NCBI GenBank assembly: GCA_022824205.1
Contig: JAJEAI010000056.1
Location: forward strand, 1-32,000
Length of the DNA: 32,000 nt
DNA from: Candidatus Binatia bacterium
GTDB taxonomy: Bacteria > Desulfobacterota > Binatia > UBA9968 > JAJDTQ01
Reading direction: 5' to 3'
The position numbers and the translations under genes were made by a program. A model generated the notes under the pieces. It did no database searches and was not told the origin of the DNA. It was given only the letters and a program-made list of their open reading frames with translations. Positions 8,358 to 19,494 of this stretch are shown one piece after another. Positions within the stretch are counted from its first letter, which is position 1. Each line of letters begins with the position of its first letter.

Positions 8358-9500
8358 ATGAAGATCGCGGTCATCACGGACGCTTGGGAACCGCAGGTCA
8401 ACGGCGTGGTGCGAACGTTGCAGCAGACGCGAACGCACCTGGGAAAACTCGGGCACGAAACACGCTTCGTGACGCCGCTGGACTTCGCCACTTTCCCTTG
8501 TCCCACCTATCCGTCCATCCGACTGGCCCTTTTCGCCGGCCGCGGGGTCCGGCGCATCCTGCGGGAATTCAAGCCCGAGGCCGTACACCTTTCCACCGAG
8601 GGACCGATCGGACACGCGGCGCGGTCCTATTGTTGCCGCTTCGGCATCCCCTTCACCACGTGTTTCCACACGCTCTTTCCTGAATACATCCGCGCACGCG
8701 CGCCGATTCCGGTGAGCTGGTCCTACCGCTACCTGCGGCGGTACCACGGTGCCGCTACGCGAACCTTGGTGGCGACCCGCTCCCTGGCCGAGCATTTGCG
8801 TCGAAACGGCTTCGACAACCTCGCCATCTGGGCCCGAGGCGTGGACACGGACCTATTCAAGCCGGGACCCAAGTCCTTTCTGCCGGGCGCGCGGCCGCTG
8901 TCCATGTACATGGGGCGCGTGGCGGTGGAAAAGAACATCGAGGCATTTCTGGATCTGGACCTTCCCGGCACCAAGTACGTCGTGGGGGACGGCCCGGATC
9001 TGCGGAGCCTGCGCTCGCGTTACCCGGACGTCCGGTTCGTCGGGCAGAAACTGGGCGAGGAGCTGGCGGCGCATGTGGCCGCCGCCGACGTGTTCGTCTT
9101 CCCGAGCCTGACGGACACCTTCGGGCTCGTCATGCTGGAGGCCATGGCCTGCGGCGTTCCGGTGGCGGCATTTCCGGTCACCGGACCGTTGGACGTGGTG
9201 CGGAACGGCATCACCGGCGTCCTGCACCCGGACCTTCGCGCCGCCGTTCTCGGCGCATTGGAGGTCGATCCCGCCGACTGTGTGGCCTACGCACGGCAGC
9301 ACACTTGGCTGGAGTGGACCCGGCGGTTCGTGTCGCTGTTGGAGCCCGTTGCGCCGGGCTTCTGGCAGAAGGCCGTGCGTCCCCTTCCCCCGCCTCCGCC
9401 CCACCTGGATTCCCGCTTCCCAGGCGATGTCATTCCGCTACACCCCGATGAGTCATTCCCGCGGAAGCGGGAATCCAGGCGGGGTGAGGCCGGGCAATGA
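8358..9500 (+). CDS. GT4-family glycosyltransferase, Agt/SQD2-like (putative diacylglycerol glycosyl/glucuronosyl transferase)
   Basis: N-terminus MKIAVITDAWEPQVNGVVRTL is characteristic of SQD2/Agt-like GT4 enzymes. The C-terminal E-x7-E region is FVFPSLTDTFGLVMLEAMACGVPV. The last ~35 codons (PPHLDSRFPGDV...SFPRKRESRRGEAGQ) are encoded by REP elements. Confidence 0.8.
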   Translation: MKIAVITDAWEPQVNGVVRTLQQTRTHLGKLGHETRFVTPLDFATFPCPTYPSIRLALFAGRGVRRILREFKPEAVHLSTEGPIGHAARSYCCRFGIPFTTCFHTLFPEYIRARAPIPVSWSYRYLRRYHGAATRTLVATRSLAEHLRRNGFDNLAIWARGVDTDLFKPGPKSFLPGARPLSMYMGRVAVEKNIEAFLDLDLPGTKYVVGDGPDLRSLRSRYPDVRFVGQKLGEELAAHVAAADVFVFPSLTDTFGLVMLEAMACGVPVAAFPVTGPLDVVRNGITGVLHPDLRAAVLGALEVDPADCVAYARQHTWLEWTRRFVSLLEPVAPGFWQKAVRPLPPPPPHLDSRFPGDVIPLHPDESFPRKRESRRGEAGQ

Positions 9501-9617
9501 GGTCGCCACACCCACCCCACCCCTGGATTCCCGCTTTCGCGGCAATGACGGTTCGGGGTGGCCGTGCCATTCCGTGTTCGTTTGGGGTCTTGACACAGCT
9601 TGTTTCGCGGGAATGAG
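9399..9617. repeat. Cluster of REP-like palindromic elements (at least 3 copies plus a partial one; BIME-like)
   Basis: Unit is approximately cacccc-ctggattcccgc-ttyc-gcgggaatgac. Copies: 9399-9436 (direct), 9452-9486 (inverted, with the perfect hairpin attcccgc-ggaa-gcgggaat at 9455-9474), 9511-9551 (direct), and a partial copy at 9603-9617. It lies between convergent genes. Confidence 0.8.
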
Positions 9618-9618
9618 C

Positions 9619-10155
9619 CTATTGCTCCAGTTGAGAGCCGGCGATGTAGTAGAACGTTTCCAGCGCGGGCAGGATGTACCAGTCGTCGTGGGGAAAACGC
9701 ATGGCGAGGAAGAAGCCCCAGATGGACAGGACCGTGCCGACGTATTGAGGGTGGCGGAGGATCGAGAAGGGGAAGGACCGGCACCAGGAGACATCGTAAC
9801 CGAACTTGGCACCGTAGAAGACGCCCACCTGGCCCAGGCGCAGGAACACGCTCAGGTTGAGCACCTGGCCCGCGATCACCAGCGCGGTGCCGACGCTCAG
9901 CCACAAGACACTCTCGTTCAAGGAGCTCAAGGAGCCTTCTCCGTAGAGATAGCACCAGCCGAGGAACACGCTGATCTGGATGGCCTTGAAGCCCAGGAAG
10001 AGCTTTCGCAGGACGTCGATGGGCTCTCCGAGGAAACGCATCCACGGCAAAGAGCACATCCTGCAGAAGGCCTCGGGGAAGCGCCACACGAAAGCGTAGC
10101 AGATGCGCTCCAAGCTGAGGCAGAAGGCGGCGACTACGAAGCTCCAGAGGTCCAT
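9619..10155 (-). CDS. PEMT/ICMT-family integral-membrane methyltransferase (phospholipid methyltransferase-like)
   Basis: 178 aa, multi-pass hydrophobic protein with the C-terminal signature FSILRHPQYVGTVLSIWGFFL (the RHPxYxG motif of the PEMT/ICMT clan). It is the last gene of the plcP operon. Confidence 0.7.
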   Translation of the reverse strand: MDLWSFVVAAFCLSLERICYAFVWRFPEAFCRMCSLPWMRFLGEPIDVLRKLFLGFKAIQISVFLGWCYLYGEGSLSSLNESVLWLSVGTALVIAGQVLNLSVFLRLGQVGVFYGAKFGYDVSWCRSFPFSILRHPQYVGTVLSIWGFFLAMRFPHDDWYILPALETFYYIAGSQLEQ

Positions 10156-10233
10156 CTGTTTGTGCGCATTCCAGACAAGCCGTGCACCGGCGTAAGCTAC
10201 ACGCCCGCACGCTCCCGGGTTTGCCTCCCTTGA

Positions 10234-12627
10234 TTACCGGCCCGCTTCCCGCTGGTCGCGCGCCTCGAGGCACTCGTCGCCCGACGACAATCCCTCCGTG
10301 GCGTAACCGGGCTTGTATGCCTCTACGCTGGAGTACGGCGGCAGGAAGGCGCGCGCTTCCGCCAACGACCGCGGCACGTAGGCGATGAGGTCCGTGAGCG
10401 GGTCGGTGATGAGCTTGATGAACCACACCATGGAGATGCGGAAGTCGTGCAGCCAAGTGAGATAGGCCACACGGCCCAGCACCACGATCAGCGTCAGGCC
10501 GAACCACTGCTTGGCGATGGCGGGCAACGTGTCCGCGGCGGCGGCCCACGTCCACGCGTCGACGCCCGCCAGGTTGAACACCGGAATCAACAAGTAGGCC
10601 AGGACGATGAGGGTCTTGTTGCGAGTGTTGTAGCCCAGCAGCAGCTCTTCCTTGTCGTGGCACGGCGGCTCGATGACCGCGTGACCCAGTTGCCGCACCA
10701 GCAGCGCGGCGAGGCTGAAGGACACCGCGGTGGTGAGGTTCGCGAATATCAGGAAGTAGCAGTAGATGAAGACGCTGGAGCTCAGGATGTGGCCGAACTG
10801 GTTCAGCGGATGGCTGTGGGACGCCTCGTGGTCGTCGTGCTTGCGGCGCATGACCTCGGTGTAGAAGGCCCACAGGGGCTTCGGCACGGGCACCAGCGTG
10901 CCCAGAAGTTCGCGCACAAGTCCCCTCCGCAGCTTGCGGTCGCGGCCGGGCTGCTGCGCTTCGGTGAGCCACCAACCGTCCTGGCGCATGGCGCGGGCCG
11001 CGCTCACGAGCTTGCCCTTGAGTTCCCGATAGTCCTCCGGTCCGAAGTCCATGTTGCTGATGCAGCGGCCGGTGCCGACCCAACTCAGGGTGACCCCTTC
11101 GGCCCGCAGGTAGTACTGCAGCAGCCAGTTGTAACGGCCGGGCTCCTGGAACAGCACCGTCCACACGGTGGCGAGGTTCACCACCCGCAGCGGCAGGCCG
11201 GCCTGCGCCAGCTCCTGGTTGGTCTCCCGCGCCCAGTCGCCGCAACGGTCGTTGACCTCGTCGTAGGCGGCCTCCGCCTCCGGTCCGGCAACCCAGCGAA
11301 GGAACTCGTTCATGGCGCCCATCACCACGGGATGCGCGGAGAACGTGCCGATGACGTAGGCCAGGCGCATGGGGTGGTCGGGGTCCGTGCGCCGCATGAG
11401 TTCCTTCCGGCCGCACACCACGCCGATGGGCATCCCGCCGCCCACGGTCTTGCCGTAGACCACCATGTCGGCCTGGACGTCGAAAAACTCCTGCGCGCCA
11501 CCGGGAGCCAGCCGGAAACCGGAGTAGACCTCGTCGAAGATCAGCGGGATATCACACGCGGCACAGACTTCGCGCAACTCGTGCAGCCACCGCTGATACG
11601 CGGCGTGCTCCTCGCGCGTCTTGCGCACGCTGCTGGTGAGCAACAATGCGTCGCTCGGCGGGGGCGAGTTCGGATGGAACGACTGCACCGGGTTCACCAG
11701 CACGCCCGCGATCTCCCCGGAGCGCCGGCGGATGGCGGCCAGCGAGGCGGGGGCCATGTCCTTGAGGGTGAGACAGTCCGTCAAGTCGCGCTCGCTCCCC
11801 AGGCCGGGCTGCACGCCGTCCCACCAGCCGTGGTAGGCGCCGGAGAAGCACACGATGAACCGGCGCCGCGTGTTGAAGCGCGCCAGCCGCACGGCGGACA
11901 TCACCGCCTCGGTGCCGCTCATGTGGAACGACACTTCGTCCAGCCCGGAGATCCTCTTGAGCACGTGGATGTTCTCGGCCACGAGGGGATGAAGCGGACC
12001 CAGCACCACGCCCAGGTCCTTGACGCGTTCCATGCCCTTCCGCATCCACTGCTTGTAGCGCTCCTGTCCCGCCACGTTGACGCCGTAGGAGCCGCTGAGG
12101 TCGAGGGACCAGTTCCCGTCGAGGTCACGCAGGCGCGGCCCGTCGGACTCGGTCACCACCGAGCAAAGGTTGAACTTCTTCCGCATCAGCCGCGCGAACG
12201 GAAACGGCACCCGGCCGGCGTCGGTGAAGCGCAGGTCCGAGAAGTTCTCCCGGATGGCGCCGCTCCAGGCAATGGCCTCGGCGGAACGCGCGCGGAAGTG
12301 GTTGGCGAGCCGCTCCAGCGCGTTCTCGCGGCGCTGCGCCCAACCCGGTTCCGCACCGTCGGCGCTGAAGAACTCGTGCGCGGCGTAGTCCCTGGAACGC
12401 ACCCAGCGGGCAAGGCGCCGGGACAGCGCCGGCCCGAACGCACGCGCGCGCACCGTAACCAGCCCACGGTAGAGCTTCCTGATCGGCACGAGCACGGCCG
12501 CACCAAGCAGCAAGACGAGAGCCGGCATCCACGCGGCCCCCAACTCGATGCTGCATCCCGTCATGAAACCGGGTCCCGGGCAGGACAAACCGATCCGGAG
12601 CGCTTCACTCGCTTCCACCAAGCCCAT
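10234..12627 (-). CDS. Fusion protein: N-terminal membrane anchor + class-III (GSA-aminomutase-like) PLP aminotransferase + C-terminal DUF962/Mpo1-like membrane domain
   Basis: Aminotransferase motifs: HMSGTEAVMSAVRLARFNTRRRFIVCFSGAYHGWWDG and IFDEVYSGFRLAPGGAQEFFDVQADMVVYGKTVGGGMPIGV (PLP Lys in YGKT). C-terminal ~190 aa: SHSHPLNQFGHILSSSVF and VRQLGHAVIE match the Mpo1/DUF962 His motifs (HHNPKNVLIH, FQFVGHGVFE). I chose the start at ATG 12627 (AGGAGG 10 nt upstream); the track ORF extends to GTG 12702. Confidence 0.75.
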   Translation of the reverse strand: MGLVEASEALRIGLSCPGPGFMTGCSIELGAAWMPALVLLLGAAVLVPIRKLYRGLVTVRARAFGPALSRRLARWVRSRDYAAHEFFSADGAEPGWAQRRENALERLANHFRARSAEAIAWSGAIRENFSDLRFTDAGRVPFPFARLMRKKFNLCSVVTESDGPRLRDLDGNWSLDLSGSYGVNVAGQERYKQWMRKGMERVKDLGVVLGPLHPLVAENIHVLKRISGLDEVSFHMSGTEAVMSAVRLARFNTRRRFIVCFSGAYHGWWDGVQPGLGSERDLTDCLTLKDMAPASLAAIRRRSGEIAGVLVNPVQSFHPNSPPPSDALLLTSSVRKTREEHAAYQRWLHELREVCAACDIPLIFDEVYSGFRLAPGGAQEFFDVQADMVVYGKTVGGGMPIGVVCGRKELMRRTDPDHPMRLAYVIGTFSAHPVVMGAMNEFLRWVAGPEAEAAYDEVNDRCGDWARETNQELAQAGLPLRVVNLATVWTVLFQEPGRYNWLLQYYLRAEGVTLSWVGTGRCISNMDFGPEDYRELKGKLVSAARAMRQDGWWLTEAQQPGRDRKLRRGLVRELLGTLVPVPKPLWAFYTEVMRRKHDDHEASHSHPLNQFGHILSSSVFIYCYFLIFANLTTAVSFSLAALLVRQLGHAVIEPPCHDKEELLLGYNTRNKTLIVLAYLLIPVFNLAGVDAWTWAAAADTLPAIAKQWFGLTLIVVLGRVAYLTWLHDFRISMVWFIKLITDPLTDLIAYVPRSLAEARAFLPPYSSVEAYKPGYATEGLSSGDECLEARDQREAGR

Positions 12628-12726
12628 TGACAGTATTCCTCCTGTCGCCCCTTCGGCCGCGCGCCAGTGTTCCGTCCGGTTCATTCGGACAGAATCCCGC
12701 ACGGCTTGGGAGGACCGACCTTCTTC

Positions 12727-13587
12727 TCAGGCAGGCCTGCCTGCCGCTCCGTCGCGATGGTGGGCGTCGTCCTTGTTGGTAAGCAGCGGGACAAACGCAC
12801 GGTCCTCCTCCTCGCCGAAGGCGATCCGGTGAGTGTCCTGCCACTCCAGCAACTCCAGCCGCCCGTCCTCGTGCTCCACCAGAGCGCTGTTGCTCTCCAC
12901 CCAGTCGCCGCAGTTGCAGTAGGTGATGTCGTTCAGGGAAACGATCTGAGCCCGGTGGATGTGTCCGCAGATGACCCCGTCCACCCCCAGGCGCGCCGCC
13001 TCGAACGCCACCGCCGCCTCGAAGTTGCTGATGTAGCGCATGGCGTTCTTGACCTTGTGCTTGATGGCGCCGGCGAGCGACCAGTAGGGCAGCCCTACCT
13101 TGCGCCGTGCCAGGTTGAGCCGCGTATTGACGGCCAGGAGCACGTCGTACGCGTGGCTGCCGAGGAGCGCGATGGCCCTGGAGGAGCGCACCACGCTGTC
13201 GAACTGGTCGCCGTGAATCACCAGGAACCGCTTGCCGTCGGCCTTTCGGTGCACGATCCGGTCACTGATCCGGATGTTGCCGAACGTCATGCCGTCGTAG
13301 TCGCGCAACATCTCGTCGTGATTCCCCGGGACGTAGATCACCTTGGTGCCGTACTTGGCCTTCCCGAGTATCGTTCGTAGAACGTTGTTGTGGTCCTGGG
13401 GCCAGAACGGCCGTTTGCGGACGGACCATATGTCGATGATGTCACCGACAAGATAGAGAAACTCGCACTCCACGGAACGCAGGAATGCAAGCAGAGACGC
13501 GGCGCTGCAGCCGCGGAAACCCAGATGGATGTCGGAGAGCCAGACCGTACGGAAAAACCGCGGTACCGTTCCCGTCGAGTTCGACAC
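12727..13587 (-). CDS. plcP: PlcP-type metallophosphoesterase (LpxH-like/COG2908; putative phosphate-starvation phospholipase C)
   Basis: 286 aa. Calcineurin-like motifs are WLSDIHLG, YLVGDIIDIW, VPGNHD, IHGDQFD and CGHIH. The stretch GDIIDIWSVRKRPFWPQDHNNVLRTILGKAKYGTKVIYVPGNHDE resembles the PlcP clade rather than LpxH proper. GTG start at 13587 with GAGGTG 5 nt upstream. Confidence 0.7.
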   Translation of the reverse strand: MSNSTGTVPRFFRTVWLSDIHLGFRGCSAASLLAFLRSVECEFLYLVGDIIDIWSVRKRPFWPQDHNNVLRTILGKAKYGTKVIYVPGNHDEMLRDYDGMTFGNIRISDRIVHRKADGKRFLVIHGDQFDSVVRSSRAIALLGSHAYDVLLAVNTRLNLARRKVGLPYWSLAGAIKHKVKNAMRYISNFEAAVAFEAARLGVDGVICGHIHRAQIVSLNDITYCNCGDWVESNSALVEHEDGRLELLEWQDTHRIAFGEEEDRAFVPLLTNKDDAHHRDGAAGRPA

Positions 13588-13915
13588 GTCGCCACCTCAT
13601 GAGTCGTTCGGATCCGGGCCAAGCAACCCGGGTTCGTTGATTTGGAGTTTCCAGCGAAAAGGCTAACGTGCCGGTGTGTTTACAAGATGAAGCGCTTGCG
13701 TCGAAAAAGCGAAGTCTTCGTTGACGTTCTGTTACCGGCGAAGCGTTGCTTCTCCATTACCGGCGCCTTCTTGCCCGCCTTGACCGCCTGTATGGCCTCG
13801 CGCTGTCCGGCCGGCCGGCTGCCGATGGGTTGCCGATGTATAATGGCCCGAAGCGAAAGGCACACTTCCATGAAAAGACAGATTTCCATGCCTTGCCTTT
13901 TCGCCGTAGCGATAG

Positions 13916-14126
13916 CTAGTGTCGCGTCCCGCAAATAAGTGGCATAATTTGCCGGTCTTTTTCGCCGTCGGCTGCGTGACGTCACCCCGGGCTTGACCCG
14001 GGGTCTTCCTCGCGTGGTACCCGCCACACGGGGCGACCGCGGGTCGCCCCTACGGGTCATCGCGCCTTGCCGACGACAAAAAATCCTGCGCAACTTATGC
14101 CACTTATTTGCGGGACGCGACACTAG
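13916..14126. mobile_element. MITE-like non-autonomous element with perfect 32-bp terminal inverted repeats
   Basis: ctagtgtcgcgtcccgcaaataagtggcataa (13916-13947) is the exact reverse complement of 14095-14126. The outermost CTAG could instead be a 4-bp target-site duplication of the IS5 type. The 147-bp interior carries two REP-type hairpins (accccggg-cttga-cccggggt at 13983-14003; ggggcgacc-gcg-ggtcgcccc at 14030-14050) and has no coding capacity. Confidence 0.75.
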
Positions 14127-14165
14127 AGATTTAATCCGATCTTAACCTGCTTCGGGTAAGGAACC

Positions 14166-16259
14166 ATGATGGAGAAAGAAAGCCTTTTCGTGAACCGTGA
14201 GATCTCGTGGATGGAGTTCAACCGGCGCGTGCTCGACGAGGCCCTGAACGACGAGGTGCCGCTGCTGGAGCGCGTGAAGTTCCTGGCCATCTTCAGCTCC
14301 AACCTCGACGAGTACTTCATGGTGCGAGTGGCGCGGCTCAAGCGACGCATCCGCGAAGGTGATGCGCAACCCGGCCCCGACGGCATGACCCCGACGCAGA
14401 CGCTGCACGGCATCTCGGAGATGGCACGCCGCCTGTCGACGCTGCAGCACGCCTGCTTCCTGGAGAAGGTGCTGCCGCGGCTCGGGGACGAGGGCATGCA
14501 CATCGTCCAGGGCGACCAGCTCACCGGGCCCCAGCAAGCGTTCCTGGAAGATTACTTCAACCGCACCGTGTTCCCGGTGCTGACGCCCCTGGCCATCGAT
14601 CCGGGGCATCCGTTCCTCTACCTGGCGAACCGCGGGCTTTGCCTCGTGGCCGCGCTGAACCCGACGAGCGACTCCGACTCCGTGCTGCCCGATGCGAACC
14701 TCTCGGTGGTCCACACCCCGGCCCACGTGATCCCGCGCTTCATCGAGCTGCCCTCGGACGACGGCGCGCACCGGTTCATCCGGCTGGAGGAGGTACTGAG
14801 GATGTACCTGCCGCAGCTCTACCGGGGCTACGAGATCCTCTCCTGCCATGCGTTGCGGGTGACCCGGGACGCGGAGTACGAGCCCACCGCCAAGATCCGC
14901 TCCGACGACCTGCTCCAGAGCATCGAGCAGGGCATCAAGGAGCGGCGCATGGGCGGGGCGGTACGCCTGCAGCACGACGAGGACATGCCCGAGCACATCC
15001 TGTCGCTGTTCGTCGATGAGTTGGAACTGGGGCAAGAGGACCTGTACGCGGGCAAGGGGTTCACCGCCTTCACCGACCTGTTCGAGCTGTACGCGAAGCT
15101 GGACCTGCCGCACCTCAAGGACCGCCCGTTCGCGCCGCTGCCCGTGAAGGCGTTCGAGGGAGGCGGGAACATCTGGAGCACGATCCGGCATTCGGACGTT
15201 CTGGTGCAGCATCCCTATCACTCCTTCGACGCCGTCACCCAATTCGTGGACGAGGCCGCGGAGGACCCCAACGTCCTCGCCATCAAGATGACGCTCTACC
15301 GCGTGAGCCCCAGTTCGCCCATCGTGCAGTCGCTGGGCAAGGCGGCGGAAGCCGGCAAGGAAGTGGCGGTGCTGCTGGAACTCCAGGCGCGCTTCGACGA
15401 GGAGGCCAACATCTCCTGGGCGCGCACGCTGGAGAACGTGGGCGCCCACGTGGTCTACGGCATCGTCGGCCTCAAGACCCACTGCAAACTGTGCCTGGTG
15501 GTGCGCCGGGAGGCCGGGGAAATCCGCCGCTACTGCCACCTGGGAACCGGCAACTACAACGCACGCACCGCCAGCATCTACAGCGACTTCAGCCTGTTCA
15601 CCGGACGCGACAGCTTCGGCGAGGACGTGAACGAGGTATTCAACCTGCTCACCGGCTACACCCGGCAACGCCGGCTCAACAACCTGGTGGTGGCTCCCGC
15701 CGACCTGCGCGACGCTTTCGTGGACCGCATCCGGCGCGAGGTGGCGCACGTCGAGGCCGGCCGTCCCGGCCGCATCGTCGCCAAGCTCAACAGCCTGGTG
15801 GATCCCCGCCTGATCGAGGAACTCTACGCGGCAAGCCGCGCGGGCGTGTCCATCGACCTCATCGTGCGCGGCATCTGCTGCCTGCGTCCGGGAGTGCAGG
15901 GGCTTTCCGAGAACATCCGCGTCCGCTCCATCATAGACCGCTACCTGGAGCACGCGCGCGTGTACCACTTCGCCAACGGCGGCGACCCGGACTACTTCCT
16001 GGCGTCGGCGGACTGGATGCCGCGCAACCTCGACCGCCGCGTCGAGGTGGCCTTCCCCGTGCCGGAGCCGGGGTTGCAAAGGACCATCGACGAAGTGCTT
16101 TCCCTGCAACTGCGCGACAACACCAAGGCGTGGGACATCCTTCCCGACGGCACCTCGCAGCGGCTCGCGCGCAACGGCGCAACGCCGGTGCGCTCCCAGG
16201 AAGAGACCTACTCCGTGCTGGGCTCCCCGCTCGACGCCAACCGGGCGGTGGATGACTGA
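14166..16259 (+). CDS. ppk: Polyphosphate kinase 1
   Basis: 697 aa. The N-terminus FVNREISWMEFNRRVLDEALNDEVPLLERVKFLAIFSSNLDEYFMVRV is the canonical PPK1 start. The autophosphorylation-region His is in KTHCKLCLVVRRE, followed by two C-terminal PLD-like domains. Confidence 0.95.
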   Translation: MMEKESLFVNREISWMEFNRRVLDEALNDEVPLLERVKFLAIFSSNLDEYFMVRVARLKRRIREGDAQPGPDGMTPTQTLHGISEMARRLSTLQHACFLEKVLPRLGDEGMHIVQGDQLTGPQQAFLEDYFNRTVFPVLTPLAIDPGHPFLYLANRGLCLVAALNPTSDSDSVLPDANLSVVHTPAHVIPRFIELPSDDGAHRFIRLEEVLRMYLPQLYRGYEILSCHALRVTRDAEYEPTAKIRSDDLLQSIEQGIKERRMGGAVRLQHDEDMPEHILSLFVDELELGQEDLYAGKGFTAFTDLFELYAKLDLPHLKDRPFAPLPVKAFEGGGNIWSTIRHSDVLVQHPYHSFDAVTQFVDEAAEDPNVLAIKMTLYRVSPSSPIVQSLGKAAEAGKEVAVLLELQARFDEEANISWARTLENVGAHVVYGIVGLKTHCKLCLVVRREAGEIRRYCHLGTGNYNARTASIYSDFSLFTGRDSFGEDVNEVFNLLTGYTRQRRLNNLVVAPADLRDAFVDRIRREVAHVEAGRPGRIVAKLNSLVDPRLIEELYAASRAGVSIDLIVRGICCLRPGVQGLSENIRVRSIIDRYLEHARVYHFANGGDPDYFLASADWMPRNLDRRVEVAFPVPEPGLQRTIDEVLSLQLRDNTKAWDILPDGTSQRLARNGATPVRSQEETYSVLGSPLDANRAVDD

Positions 16260-16303: not shown

Positions 16304-17722
16304 ATGCAACATTCGACTCCACAGACACCGCAACCGTCCGTGGATGCATCCGCGGGTGCGGCAGCGCGCGAAGTAGCGCTCGAAAACATCGTCATGTGGA
16401 CCGGGCTCGGCCGCTACGACGACGTGCGCCGGCTGCTGGCCGATTTCCATCCCGCCGACATCGCGGAGTTGCTGGACCAGCTCGACGAACCACGGGTACG
16501 GCAGCGAGTGTTCGGCCTGCTGTCCGAGGAGACGGCCTCCGCGGTGCTGAGCCTGATCTCGCCGGAAGCGCGCGACGAGTTGGTGGCCGACCTCTCGGAC
16601 CGGGAACTGGCCGAGCTGGTGGAGGAGCTGGACACCGACGATGCCGCGGATCTGCTGGACGCCCTGCCGGAAGAGCGCGCCCCCACCGTCCTGGCGGAGA
16701 TGCCGTCGGAGCTGGCGGAGGAAATCGGCGACCTCCTGGACCACCCGCCGGACAGCGCCGGCGGCATCATGCAGACGGAGTACGTGTCGGTACCGCAGTA
16801 CGCCACCGTGGAGCAGGCCATCGGCATCATCCGCCGGGCGCATGACGACGTGCCCGAGGTCCACGACGTCTTCGTAGTGAACGTGGAGCGGCGCGTCACC
16901 GGCATCCTGCCCCTCAGCAACCTGGTGCTGGCGCGCCCCGACGAATCCGTCGCCCACATCATGGAGCGGCCGGTGATCTCCGTGCCCGTGGCGATGCCGC
17001 AGGACGAGGTCGCCCGCGTCCTGCAGAAGTACGACTTCGTCACGGTCCCGGTGGTGGACGACCAGGACCGGCTCGTGGGCCGGGTCACCATCGACGACGT
17101 GGTGGACGTCATCGAGGAGGAAGCCAGCAAGGACATCTACGCCATCGCCGGCGTCGAGAGCGAGTCCATCAACCTGGCGCGGGACTCCGTGTTCAAGCGC
17201 GTGGGCGAACGCTTCTCGTGGGTGGTGACCACGGTGCTGCTGGGGCTCGTGGTGGCCCTGGTGATCTCCAAGGTCTTCGTGGAGACCTTCGAGAAGATGG
17301 CGCTCCTGGCCGCGTTCCTCCCGGTGATCATCGCCACCGCCGGCGCCGTGGGGCTCCAGTCCTCCACCCTGGTGGTGCGCGCCATCGCCCTCGGCACCCT
17401 CTCGCTCCAGCGCGTCTTCTCGGTGATCCTCTACGAAGCCGCCACCGGCCTGGTCCTGGGCGCAAGCTGCGGCCTCATCACCGCCGCCGCCAGCTACCTC
17501 ATCAACATGGGCACCCCCGACATCCTCCAGCTCTCCTTCGCTGTGCTCATCGGCATGGTCATCTCCGTCACCACCGCCGCCTGCGTCGGCACCGTCCAGC
17601 CCATCATCTTCTACAAGCTCAACCGCGACCCCGCCGTCGCCGCCGGCCCGCTGGTGACCGCGTTCAACGACCTGCTGGGAACGACGTTGTACCTGGTGGT
17701 GGCGACGGCGTTGCAGGCGTAG
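16304..17722 (+). CDS. mgtE: Magnesium transporter MgtE
   Basis: 472 aa. MgtE N-domain (FHPADIAELLDQLD), tandem CBS domains (PVVDDQDRLVGRVTIDDVVDVIEEEASKDI) and a C-terminal 5-TM divalent-cation transporter domain. It starts 44 nt after the ppk stop. Confidence 0.9.
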   Translation: MQHSTPQTPQPSVDASAGAAAREVALENIVMWTGLGRYDDVRRLLADFHPADIAELLDQLDEPRVRQRVFGLLSEETASAVLSLISPEARDELVADLSDRELAELVEELDTDDAADLLDALPEERAPTVLAEMPSELAEEIGDLLDHPPDSAGGIMQTEYVSVPQYATVEQAIGIIRRAHDDVPEVHDVFVVNVERRVTGILPLSNLVLARPDESVAHIMERPVISVPVAMPQDEVARVLQKYDFVTVPVVDDQDRLVGRVTIDDVVDVIEEEASKDIYAIAGVESESINLARDSVFKRVGERFSWVVTTVLLGLVVALVISKVFVETFEKMALLAAFLPVIIATAGAVGLQSSTLVVRAIALGTLSLQRVFSVILYEAATGLVLGASCGLITAAASYLINMGTPDILQLSFAVLIGMVISVTTAACVGTVQPIIFYKLNRDPAVAAGPLVTAFNDLLGTTLYLVVATALQA

Positions 17723-17921: not shown

Positions 17922-19163
17922 CTACTGAAGAGTACAGCCCTGCTGCCCGCGGCGCAGGCACGCCAGGTTGTGATGGAAGACCGCCGCCTGGGCGCGGGCG
18001 AAGCCGGCGCGGTCGGCGCCGCTCTCGCGGCTTCGCCGGTACCGCGCCCAGTCGCCGTCGTTGCCGTCGCGCCAATAGCCGTCGAGGACCTGGGCGGGCA
18101 GCGGCTTGAGTTGAGGGCGGGTGTTGTAGCGCGCGCCGGGCGGGCCGTCGCGGCCGGGGAGGCGGCGGCGCTCGCCCAGGAAGCCATGGAAGGCGTAGAA
18201 GGCATCGCTGCCGGGGAGGAACTGCACCTCGTAGTCCACGGTGCGTTCCGGGTCGGTGATGTCGTCCGCGGACATGGTCGGCCGCTCGCCGAAGCCCATC
18301 ATGAAGGCCCTGGCTTCGGAGTCGAGGAACCGCACCGCGCGTCGGACGGTGCGGCCGGGCGCGTGCGGGTACAGCTCGTTCGAGCGGATGGCGATATCGA
18401 TGTCGAACCGTCCGTCGCGTCCCAACTCCACCGACTCGCCCACCAGGTAGGTGCGCAGGTAGTTGTGTTGCTGCAGGGTGAGGGCAACGGGACGCTCGGC
18501 CGCGTCCAGCACCACGAATGCGGCGGTGTAGTGGTCGAGTTGGTGCCAGTCGTCCAGGTCCGCCACGAGCCGTAGCGGGAGGGCGAACGCCAGGGGCAGC
18601 GCCGCGGGCAGGCCGCTCACGCGGAAGACCAGGTGGTAGGTGACGACGGTGAACTCCTCGGGCGCCTGTCCATCTTGCCGCGGCGCCCACAAGCCGGTGC
18701 GCTCCACCGCGGCGTAGACCACGGGATGCGGCCGGCCGTCGCCGGGCACGTGCGTGAACTCGGCGCGAACGTCGTCGCGGTAGCGGTTGAGGTCCGCGGG
18801 CGTGGGACCGTCGATGCGGACGCCGTCGCCGGTCACCAGGTAACCGTGGGCGATGTAGTCGCGGTAGAAGTCGATGGGGCCTTCGTGGCCCGCGGGCAAG
18901 TGGAAACGCAGCGCATGCCGGTGGGCCAGGGCCTGGTCGGCCGGGTCCGCGGCCGCCGGCGGCGGATTCGCGGCAAAGTACTCGGCGAACCCTGGATACT
19001 GCGAGAAATTGCGGTCAGCGGCCACGGCGGACGCACAGAACACCACCAGCAGAAGGCCCGCGATGCAACCCCACAGGGTTAAAGTTCTCGCGAAACCTGG
19101 CGACAGGTACTCATAGAGGCCCTGTGAGCGCCGAGTTTGATCGATCGATCCAGGTTTTGACAT
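17922..19163 (-). CDS. Secreted or membrane-anchored hypothetical protein (413 aa), no family recognised
   Basis: Start trimmed to ATG 19163. The N-terminus has a signal-like segment TLTLWGCIAGLLLVVFCASAVAADR (AVA-A cleavage-type site). Codon usage is consistent with the neighbouring genes. I recognise no catalytic motif with confidence. Confidence 0.6.
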   Translation of the reverse strand: MSKPGSIDQTRRSQGLYEYLSPGFARTLTLWGCIAGLLLVVFCASAVAADRNFSQYPGFAEYFAANPPPAAADPADQALAHRHALRFHLPAGHEGPIDFYRDYIAHGYLVTGDGVRIDGPTPADLNRYRDDVRAEFTHVPGDGRPHPVVYAAVERTGLWAPRQDGQAPEEFTVVTYHLVFRVSGLPAALPLAFALPLRLVADLDDWHQLDHYTAAFVVLDAAERPVALTLQQHNYLRTYLVGESVELGRDGRFDIDIAIRSNELYPHAPGRTVRRAVRFLDSEARAFMMGFGERPTMSADDITDPERTVDYEVQFLPGSDAFYAFHGFLGERRRLPGRDGPPGARYNTRPQLKPLPAQVLDGYWRDGNDGDWARYRRSRESGADRAGFARAQAAVFHHNLACLRRGQQGCTLQ

Positions 19164-19239
19164 TACCGCGGCTTCCTGGTGCAATGGATCGTTGCAGTCG
19201 AAACCGGGCGGGAAGCACAACACGTTCGGAGACGACCCG

Positions 19240-19494
19240 ATGAGCATGATTGTGACGGAGCTCTACGACGCCCTTAAGGAAGCCGGAGCCACGGAGGAGA
19301 AAGCCAGGGCCGCGGCCGGCGCCATCCCCATGGTCGAGAACCTCGCCGGCAAACAAGACCTTGCCGAACTGAAGGCTGAACTGAAGGGGGACATCGCGGT
19401 CGTGAAGCGTGACGTCGCGGTGCTGAAGCTCGCGGTGTTCAGCTTTCTGCCAACCATCGTGGCTCTGCTTGTGAAGCTGGTCTTCTTCCCCTGA
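19240..19494 (+). CDS. DUF1640-like small coiled-coil protein with C-terminal membrane anchor
   Basis: 84 aa: MSMIVTELYDALKEAGATEEKARAAAGAI...KQDLAELKAELKGDIAVVKRDVAVLKLAVFSFLPTIVALLVKLVFFP. The architecture matches bacterial DUF1640 proteins. GGAGA lies 7 nt upstream of the ATG at 19240. Confidence 0.55.
   Translation: MSMIVTELYDALKEAGATEEKARAAAGAIPMVENLAGKQDLAELKAELKGDIAVVKRDVAVLKLAVFSFLPTIVALLVKLVFFP

Follow-up and report, generated by a model that had tools for sequence, protein, structure and literature searches.

A putative PlcP–Agt lipid-remodelling locus with an aminotransferase–Mpo1-like fusion and a PEMT-family methyltransferase in a Candidatus Binatia bacterium

Gene content and layout of the locus

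The window analysed here is a 32,000-nt stretch of DNA from Candidatus Binatia bacterium (GCA_022824205.1; contig JAJEAI010000056.1, positions 1–32,000 of the forward strand). It carries a cluster of four genes whose predicted products are a PlcP-clade metallophosphoesterase, a fusion of a class-III aminotransferase with an Mpo1-like domain, a PEMT-family integral-membrane S-adenosylmethionine (SAM) methyltransferase, and an Agt-clade diacylglycerol glycosyltransferase of family GT4 (Table 1). The new part is the extension of a PlcP–Agt module by two enzymes of uncharacterised subfamilies. An earlier reading of this DNA, made without database searches (the sequence-only reading), had placed the four genes at these coordinates with these domains and the GT4 gene convergent to the others; open reading frame (ORF) calls and Pfam searches agree, with the DUF962 (Mpo1-like) match of the fusion falling below its cutoff.

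The three minus-strand genes have no minus-strand terminator-like site between them, which is consistent with a plcP–fusion–PEMT operon; agt lies 3.2 kb from plcP. The fusion probably starts at 12627 rather than 12702, because its homologues are 766–770 amino acids (aa) long and align from M26. We set the cluster beside related loci, in which genes were called with a GC3-based gene caller. Eighty such loci were fetched; the 81 analysed are those minus one without a gene call, plus L002 and L003 (L numbers denote loci throughout).

Table 1. Features of the window and of related loci
Feature	Sequence	Coordinates	Strand	Remark
plcP, PlcP-clade metallophosphoesterase	window	12727–13587	–	first gene of minus-strand operon
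fusion, aminotransferase + Mpo1-like domain	window	10234–12627	–	ORF could open at 12702 (822 codons)
PEMT-family integral-membrane SAM methyltransferase, 178 aa	window	9619–10155	–	last operon gene
agt, Agt-clade GT4 diacylglycerol glycosyltransferase	window	8358–9500	+	convergent with operon
plcP/ppk divergent intergenic region	window	13588–14165		presumed promoter-bearing; repeats inside
ppk1, polyphosphate kinase	window	14166–16259	+	divergent from plcP; context, not core
mgtE, magnesium transporter	window	16304–17722	+	downstream of ppk; context only
predicted membrane protein, 441 aa	window	17922–19247	–	adjoins mgtE; no Pfam or NCBIfam match
nested palindromic repeats	window	9400–9620		between convergent agt and PEMT
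direct repeats	window	13719–13765		upstream of plcP
inverted repeat pair	window	13916–14126		plcP/ppk intergenic
PHP-like~GT4 protein	L047	10267–12948
PHP-like~GT4 protein	L048	11567–14287
PHP-like~GT4 protein	L049	11746–14466
PHP-like~GT4 protein	L044
PHP-like~GT4 protein	L066	6792–9884
short annotated 'Mpo1-like protein'	P. aeruginosa, L087	7420–7737		two genes from plcP–agt1
LPG_synthase_TM-like membrane protein	L053, L055, L058, L064, L076, L078, L081–L083			next to agt

Predicted functions of the four proteins

The phosphoesterase matches Metallophos (Pfam, 51.5 bits), and all the metallophosphoesterase motifs checked (DxH, GDxxD, GNHD, H and GHxH) are intact in its translation, as DIHLG, GDIIDIW, GNHDE, IHGDQFD and GHIHRA. 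Characterised PlcPs of Pseudomonas aeruginosa and Sinorhizobium meliloti were found by tblastn of a plasmid collection, in records derived from chromosomes. The window protein shares 48% identity across 241 aa with the S. meliloti orthologue, whose gene adjoins genes for a LuxR regulator and an N-acyl-homoserine lactone (AHL) synthase; this is presumably the location of SMc00171, which we take to lie next to sinR/sinI. The replicon in question (L086, CP090106.1, 3.72 Mb) is labelled 'plasmid pSymB' in the collection and is probably the chromosome, because it has the AHL-synthase and LuxR genes and the PlcP orthologue on board. With P. aeruginosa PA3219 the identity is 53% across 234 aa. The P. 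aeruginosa gene lies directly upstream of, and overlaps, a glycosyltransferase gene, and PA3219/PA3218 are the plcP/agt1 pair (PMC8528852). PA3219 is itself just 46–47% identical to other characterised PlcPs (PMC8528852); the window protein is as near to the characterised PlcPs as those are to one another.

Public annotation calls the homologues UDP-2,3-diacylglucosamine diphosphatase, and the sole Protein Data Bank (PDB) match and closest solved structure of the window protein is Haemophilus influenzae LpxH (5k8k), which raises the alternative that the enzyme is LpxH proper, with lipid A being made or modified by the locus. Characterised PlcPs bear the same annotation, however, the structural match is distant (24.8 bits) compared with the 48–53% identity to PlcP, and both LpxH equivalog models were missed at about a fifth to a quarter of their cutoffs (TIGR01854, 39.8 versus 190.35 bits; NF003743, 37.9 versus 134). 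We therefore reject the LpxH identity, leaving this alternative a next to negligible chance, and keep the PlcP grouping proposed by the sequence-only reading. Homology supports a PlcP-type phospholipase C predicted to free diacylglycerol from phospholipids. Genes of the same phosphoesterase family adjoin btaB–btaA in L024 and L029, have btaA close by in L030, L032 and L040, and adjoin agt in further loci. These agt and btaAB neighbourhoods match the published plcP gene contexts 1 and 2, btaAB being the classical type-1 context (PMC4796936).

The GT4 product matches Glyco_transf_4 (78.8 bits) and Glycos_transf_1 (65.9 bits) in Pfam. Two motifs, GRVAXEKN and FPSXTDTFG, mark the Agt/GTcp clade, which has Asp where GT4 enzymes usually have Glu (PMC8231724). 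The window protein has both (GRVAVEKN and FPSLTDTFG) and is 48% identical across 328 aa to P. aeruginosa Agt1/PA3218 (E 3e-108), so that the Agt-clade label given from the sequence holds. Agt1 yields monoglucosyl-diacylglycerol in Escherichia coli (PMC8528852), and characterised members of the clade vary in their donor (UDP-Glc, UDP-GlcA or UDP-Gal; PMC8231724, PMC8528852). By homology, the window Agt would glycosylate diacylglycerol with glucose or glucuronic acid. Taken jointly, the PlcP and Agt assignments are ones in which we place high, though not complete, confidence. The window Agt (380 aa) is longer than its Nitrospira homologues (337–347 aa) because nested palindromic repeats, based on GGGAATCC...CGCGAAAGCGGGAATCC, overlap the final ~40 codons of its gene.

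The fusion, a predicted bifunctional membrane protein, consists of an N-terminal transmembrane helix, a conserved extension, the class-III aminotransferase, and a four-helix Mpo1-like membrane domain; hydropathy indicates a single membrane helix at the N-terminus and about four at the C-terminus. With Aminotran_3 at 102.6 bits (Pfam cutoff 30.5), the membrane-anchored class-III aminotransferase read from the sequence is confirmed. Its best PDB match is the amine-transferase (AMT) domain of MycA (6kfm, 169 bits, E 1e-48), an enzyme that shifts an amine from glutamine to a long-chain β-keto thioester tethered to an acyl carrier protein. All structures of glutamate-1-semialdehyde aminomutase (GSAM) score at most 117.6 bits, and aminoglycoside C-6′ aminotransferases are weak class-III relatives (71.7 bits). 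A HemL (GSAM) identity was rejected, as both equivalog cutoffs were missed (TIGR00713, 166.6 versus 527.3 bits; NF000818, 172 versus 398) and MycA AMT outscores every GSAM structure. The lysine of a YGKT motif is invariant in 13 aligned sequences, aligns with the YGK of MycA AMT, and is likely the residue that binds pyridoxal 5′-phosphate (PLP). Relative to MycA the fusion has a 21-residue insertion. Both proteins fall in the class-III, GSAM-like PLP subgroup, and MycA, which belongs to the mycosubtilin/iturin synthetases, aminates a lipid-bound ketone; unlike MycA AMT, the window protein lies outside any polyketide or nonribosomal peptide synthetase, has no carrier-protein partner, and is membrane-anchored at both ends.

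The C-terminal domain had been read as a DUF962/Mpo1-like, dioxygenase-like domain, and here the picture is mixed. The window domain itself scores 14.7 bits (E 0.033) against Mpo1-like (PF06127, DUF962), short of the cutoff of 24. A stand-alone homologue from Bradyrhizobium jicamae reaches 20.9 bits, and the best stand-alone match (E 3.8e-5) is still below the cutoff. The label is nevertheless backed by the stand-alone homologues as a set, since Mpo1-like is the sole Pfam family shared by them, in 23 of 23 (E ≤ 0.01). By these comparisons the domain is a distant, sub-threshold relative of Mpo1. An AlphaFold2 model of it is helical and of membrane type (pLDDT 82), and a fold search of the PDB with this model gave no match. 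Fused and free forms share the invariant pattern DDH..H....NQ..H -> RQxGH...EP -> DKE, in which H20, H24, N29, H33, G68, H69 and E73 (A3 numbering) never vary. In the model, helices one and two of the domain carry the conserved His/Asn/His and His/Glu residues at their cytoplasmic ends, where these may form a metal site facing the cytoplasmic leaflet beside the aminotransferase. Yeast Mpo1, a dioxygenase that depends on Fe(II) and acts on 2-hydroxy fatty acids, is likewise a small helical membrane domain; the conserved His-x4-Asn-x3-His and Gly-His-x3-Glu motifs of the window domain may correspond to motifs of the yeast protein, which we treat as a lead rather than a test. The window domain differs from it in its sub-cutoff score, its extra helices, and its fusion or adjacency to an aminotransferase.

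Both partners of the fusion also invite the alternative that its substrate is a lipid acyl chain, or else a free fatty acid of the 2-hydroxy or keto type, and that its product, an amino fatty acid or an alkylamine, is then methylated, decarboxylated or glycosylated. MycA AMT aminates a long-chain β-keto acyl thioester, its alignment with the fusion extends beyond the core aminotransferase domain into the conserved stretch upstream, and the characterised Mpo1, as its Pfam family name has it, works on 2-hydroxy fatty acids. Against this, the loci contain no conserved carrier protein, acyl-ligase or acyltransferase partner, and the conserved neighbours are mostly head-group enzymes (GT4, decarboxylase and N-methyltransferases). 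We consider action on the acyl chain distinctly unlikely.

A short annotated 'Mpo1-like protein' lies near plcP–agt1 in P. aeruginosa (Table 1). BLAST detected no similarity between it and the window C-terminal domain, and we rejected it as a member of the same subfamily. P. aeruginosa also makes an unassigned phosphate-stress glycolipid, 'UGL' (m/z 786.8), with a head group 2 Da below that of glucuronic acid diacylglycerol (GADG), which neither Agt1 nor Agt2 produces in E. coli (PMC8528852).

The last gene of the operon had been described as a PEMT/ICMT-family membrane methyltransferase. The PEMT half of that description stands (53.1 bits; Pfam cutoff 25), as does the membrane location (at least three helices by hydropathy); ICMT, at 20.3 bits, falls below its cutoff of 24. 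A PEMT gene follows the fusion directly in 23 of the 39 fused-form loci, sometimes overlapping it, and in L003 it overlaps the fusion stop codon.

Distribution, neighbours and the link to phosphate

With one genome scanned per species, relatives of the fusion turned up in at least 594 species-level genomes, which by their record titles belong to about ten phyla. Among its closest relatives, from Nitrospira, Binatia and metagenome sequences, the fusion is 65–91% identical, and fused-form loci of Methylomirabilota, Acidobacteriota and other phyla are 57–70% identical. The nearest relative in the species scan is a Syntrophobacterales metagenome-assembled genome (L042, 93%) whose genes lie in the same order, ppk and mgtE included. 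Among the 80 fetched loci, 37 have the fused form and 43 a split form. The split-form aminotransferase is 46–51% identical and lacks the C-terminal domain, and 41 of the 43 split-form loci encode a separate Mpo1-like gene, mostly adjacent to the aminotransferase; among Proteobacteria each half has a gene of its own, and the two genes adjoin. With L002 and L003 counted in, the two parts are fused in 37 of the 39 loci of the fused-form group. Their occurrence both fused and split strongly indicates that the aminotransferase and Mpo1-like parts work together.

GT4 and plcP are frequent but not universal neighbours of the cluster. A GT4 gene lies within 7 kb in 62 of the 81 loci and plcP in 26; the nearby GT4s carry the Agt motif in 30 loci and a Glu-type variant in 22. 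Synteny of the fusion and methyltransferase with plcP/agt, on which the sequence-only reading had staked its case, is conserved across phyla in this neighbourhood analysis. Could the four genes nonetheless be adjacent by chance, or in this lineage only, without a common pathway? GT4 genes are common in bacterial genomes, and about two thirds of the loci have no plcP within 7 kb. Yet the association recurs in about ten phyla with differing gene orders, the fused and split halves are a classic sign of functional linkage, and PEMT overlaps the fusion stop codon in L003. We judge chance adjacency highly improbable and functional coupling of the four genes likely.

Two further kinds of GT4 occur beside the cluster. 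One subtype lies directly upstream of the fusion (L003, L008–L019, L026 and others), is ~400–460 aa long, has the motifs GR[LI]AxEKN and FPSETETFG, and takes the place of the Agt-motif GT4 among Binatia and Rokubacteria; in NCBIfam it comes closest to two lipid glycosyltransferases, GlcNAc-PG synthase (136 bits) and MGlcDAG synthase (90 bits), both below cutoff. The other is a set of ~900–1030 aa proteins (Table 1) with an N-terminal PHP-like region (HCHD...TNHNN; a label given by visual inspection of the motifs), a hydrophobic stretch in the middle, and a GT4 domain at the C-terminus. These PHP-like~GT4 proteins, which share an operon with the aminotransferase and the decarboxylase, possibly replace separate PlcP and Agt.

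Several related loci link the cluster to phosphate. In Nitrospira sp. KM1 it abuts pstSCAB–phoU next to plcP, in L003 PhoX and the phosphate porin OprO/P follow it, and btaA/btaB (DUF3419 plus methyltransferase) stand beside it in seven loci. Pho-box-like sites, defined as at least 10 of 14 matches to CTGTCATNNNNCTGTCAT, lie upstream of 44% of cluster genes versus 14% of other genes of the same loci (Fisher p = 2e-13), in a comparison that counts divergent regions twice and uses a proteobacterial consensus. One Pho-box match elsewhere in the window is no more than expected by chance.

The split-form loci differ in their accessory enzymes. Of the 43 split-form loci, 33 have a phosphatidylserine decarboxylase gene (TIGR00163, 161 bits; cutoff 112), which no fused-form locus has. 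In about ten split-form loci there is also a gene for a class-I methyltransferase that matches PmtA best (155 bits, below cutoff), and PEMT is seen in none of the split-form loci; N-methyltransferases go with both forms, PEMT with the fused and PmtA-like enzymes with the split. In L047–L049 (zeta- and gammaproteobacteria), the aminotransferase, a 900-aa PHP-like~GT4 protein and the decarboxylase form one co-directional operon, joined by the Mpo1-like gene in L048 and L049. Sphingomonas parapaucimobilis encodes the decarboxylase, aminotransferase, Mpo1-like gene and methyltransferase with no GT4 within 9 kb.

These genes bear on the most serious alternative, in which the fusion and methyltransferase modify phospholipid head groups of the phosphatidylserine (PS) or phosphatidylethanolamine (PE) type and stand near plcP/agt only through co-regulated clustering of lipid genes. 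The decarboxylase passes its equivalog cutoff, the PmtA-like enzymes resemble a phospholipid N-methyltransferase, PEMT is a phospholipid methyltransferase family, and the Sphingomonas core lacks GT4. However, Pho-box-like sites are present in the divergent decarboxylase/aminotransferase promoters of related loci, and extra phospholipid would be counter-productive under phosphate starvation. The L047–L049 operon, which joins the aminotransferase and decarboxylase to a PHP-like~GT4 protein, and the GT4 genes within 7 kb, whether of the Agt-motif type or of any type, also speak against it. We regard phospholipid modification as unlikely, although it is the strongest of the competing explanations.

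In Xanthobacteraceae-like split-form loci, a membrane protein with a weak match to LPG_synthase_TM (the MprF flippase domain) lies next to agt (Table 1), and in six of these loci an unannotated protein of ~500 aa follows it. This neighbour may reflect lineage synteny or may offer an export route for the product.

The sequence-only reading had also described ppk and mgtE as immediately divergent and placed the neighbourhood in phosphate/Mg physiology. Both genes are as annotated (ppk1, TIGR03705, 854 bits, cutoff 466; mgtE, TIGR00400, 339 bits, cutoff 233; NCBIfam equivalogs). ppk is indeed divergent from plcP; mgtE instead follows ppk. The phosphate part recurs more often: of the 81 loci, 6 have ppk close to the cluster (L006, L026, L027, L042, L070 and L071), and it directly adjoins plcP in Mitsuaria, while mgtE is near it in L006 and L042 only.

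A scan for the sigma-70 promoter consensus, which took in the plcP/ppk intergenic region, found nothing. Within that region, an inverted repeat pair of 37 nt (97% complementary, enclosing 137 nt) looks like a small insertion resembling a miniature inverted-repeat transposable element, set between divergent plcP and ppk. Two direct repeats of 22 nt, CGTTGACGTTCTGTTACCGGCG and CGTTGCTTCTCCATTACCGGCG, are separated by 25 nt and might serve a regulator as its site; their spacing is not that of a Pho box. Elsewhere the window carries genes for metabolism unrelated to the cluster (CoA-transferases, a MaoC-like protein, a Rieske oxygenase, and ABC and MFS transporters).

A proposed pathway and its meaning

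We conjecture that the cluster serves lipid remodelling during phosphate starvation and contains two additional steps, a scheme that we hold tentatively, as somewhat short of probable overall. The opening steps have homology behind them: PlcP would cleave phospholipids to diacylglycerol, and Agt would then glycosylate it with glucose or glucuronic acid. The Mpo1-like, His-rich and probably Fe-dependent domain, on the cytoplasmic face, would oxidise the lipid head group to a carbonyl, which the fused MycA-AMT-like PLP domain would turn into an amine; fusion of the two domains would channel the reactive intermediate. Finally, methylation by the PEMT-family enzyme would follow, with nitrogen as the most likely site. 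The outcome would be a phosphorus-free, amine-bearing, partly methylated diacylglycerol lipid that replaces PE and phosphatidylcholine (PC) when phosphate is scarce. The sequence-only reading had likewise suggested an undescribed phosphorus-free lipid, possibly amino- and methyl-bearing; its computable predictions were borne out, and the lipid itself is still a proposal.

Each part of this scheme has a counterpart in known systems. The window proteins match the PlcP–Agt modules of S. meliloti (SMc00171), Agrobacterium tumefaciens (Agt), SAR11 HTCC7211 and P. aeruginosa (PA3219/PA3218) at the orthologue level (48–53% identity, Agt motifs), and plcP/agt proximity and the Pho-regulon neighbourhood are alike. 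Those modules comprise two genes alone, or plcP with btaAB, whereas the window plcP heads an operon with the fusion and PEMT, and its agt is convergent rather than directly downstream of plcP. BtaA/BtaB, which make the betaine lipid diacylglyceryl-trimethylhomoserine (DGTS), are likewise Pho-linked and give diacylglycerol from PlcP a head group with an N-methylated amine; the enzymes are unrelated, and their amine comes from the aminocarboxypropyl group of SAM rather than from the carbonyl transamination proposed here. ArnA/ArnB and NeoQ/NeoB are precedents for sugar oxidation followed by transamination, the same two-step chemistry as proposed for the fusion. They act on nucleotide-sugar or soluble pseudosaccharide substrates with NAD or FAD oxidoreductases, and have no Mpo1-like membrane domain. 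Full-text literature searches, which did not cover all journals, found no published description of this gene combination; since coverage was incomplete, this is not proof of absence. A paper on phosphate limitation in D. alaskensis reports an Agt homologue and nothing like the fusion.

Several observations weigh against the proposed pathway. About a quarter of the loci, including S. parapaucimobilis, have no GT4 within 7 kb. The window cluster, plcP included, has no canonical Pho box nearby (up to three mismatches allowed), and the double counting and proteobacterial consensus limit the Pho-box comparison given above. The Mpo1-like label is below cutoff and its fold has no solved counterpart; to our knowledge, the only characterised Mpo1 uses 2-hydroxy fatty acids and not sugars. 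Sequence alone yields no product, and the split form has a bona fide phosphatidylserine decarboxylase, which is more in keeping with serine/ethanolamine or phospholipid chemistry than with the mere amination of a sugar.

With its decarboxylase and PmtA-like genes, the split form hints at an intermediate akin to a serine or ethanolamine head group, and the actual chemistry may accordingly go beyond plain amination of a sugar. One such route, which we mention as a long shot, would cleave the ring of a glycosyl-diacylglycerol to a serine, ethanolamine or choline acetal, and so be a bacterial route to betaine lipids resembling diacylglyceryl-carboxyhydroxymethylcholine (DGCC). We know of no described biosynthesis of DGCC-like betaine lipids. 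Single products were considered in turn (6-amino-glucosyl-diacylglycerol, an aminoarabinose (Ara4N)-like diacylglycerol, a DGCC-like lipid and an alkylamine); each covers part of the gene set and we settle on none. In its broadest form, the proposal is that this locus and its split-gene relatives, with their decarboxylase paralogue and PmtA-like methyltransferase, make a so far undescribed class of phosphorus-free membrane lipids, with an amine head group formed by oxidation and transamination and then N-methylated, as surrogates for PE and PC under the Pho regulon, in hundreds of species from about ten phyla. We offer this as a possibility, more tentatively than the scheme for the locus itself.

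The swap of phospholipids for phosphorus-free lipids is a major microbial answer to phosphate scarcity in oceans, soils and infections, and the surrogate lipids with known genes are few: glycolipids, DGTS, ornithine lipids and sulfoquinovosyl-diacylglycerol (SQDG). If the proposed pathway is correct, it would add a new lipid class and a new enzymology, in which a membrane Mpo1-like oxidase is coupled to an amine transferase of the polyketide synthase type, and the pathway would be present in hundreds of soil and freshwater species. The carriers include groups of ecological weight (Nitrospira, Binatia, Methylomirabilota, Acidobacteriota, Bradyrhizobium and Methylobacterium), and several are in culture (Nitrospira moscoviensis, Bradyrhizobium jicamae SZCCT0349, Methylobacterium sp. 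C25, Roseomonas sp. KE2513 and Sphingomonas parapaucimobilis YK209), which makes the pathway directly testable. The genes would also provide markers for unassigned nitrogen-containing lipids in environmental lipidomes.

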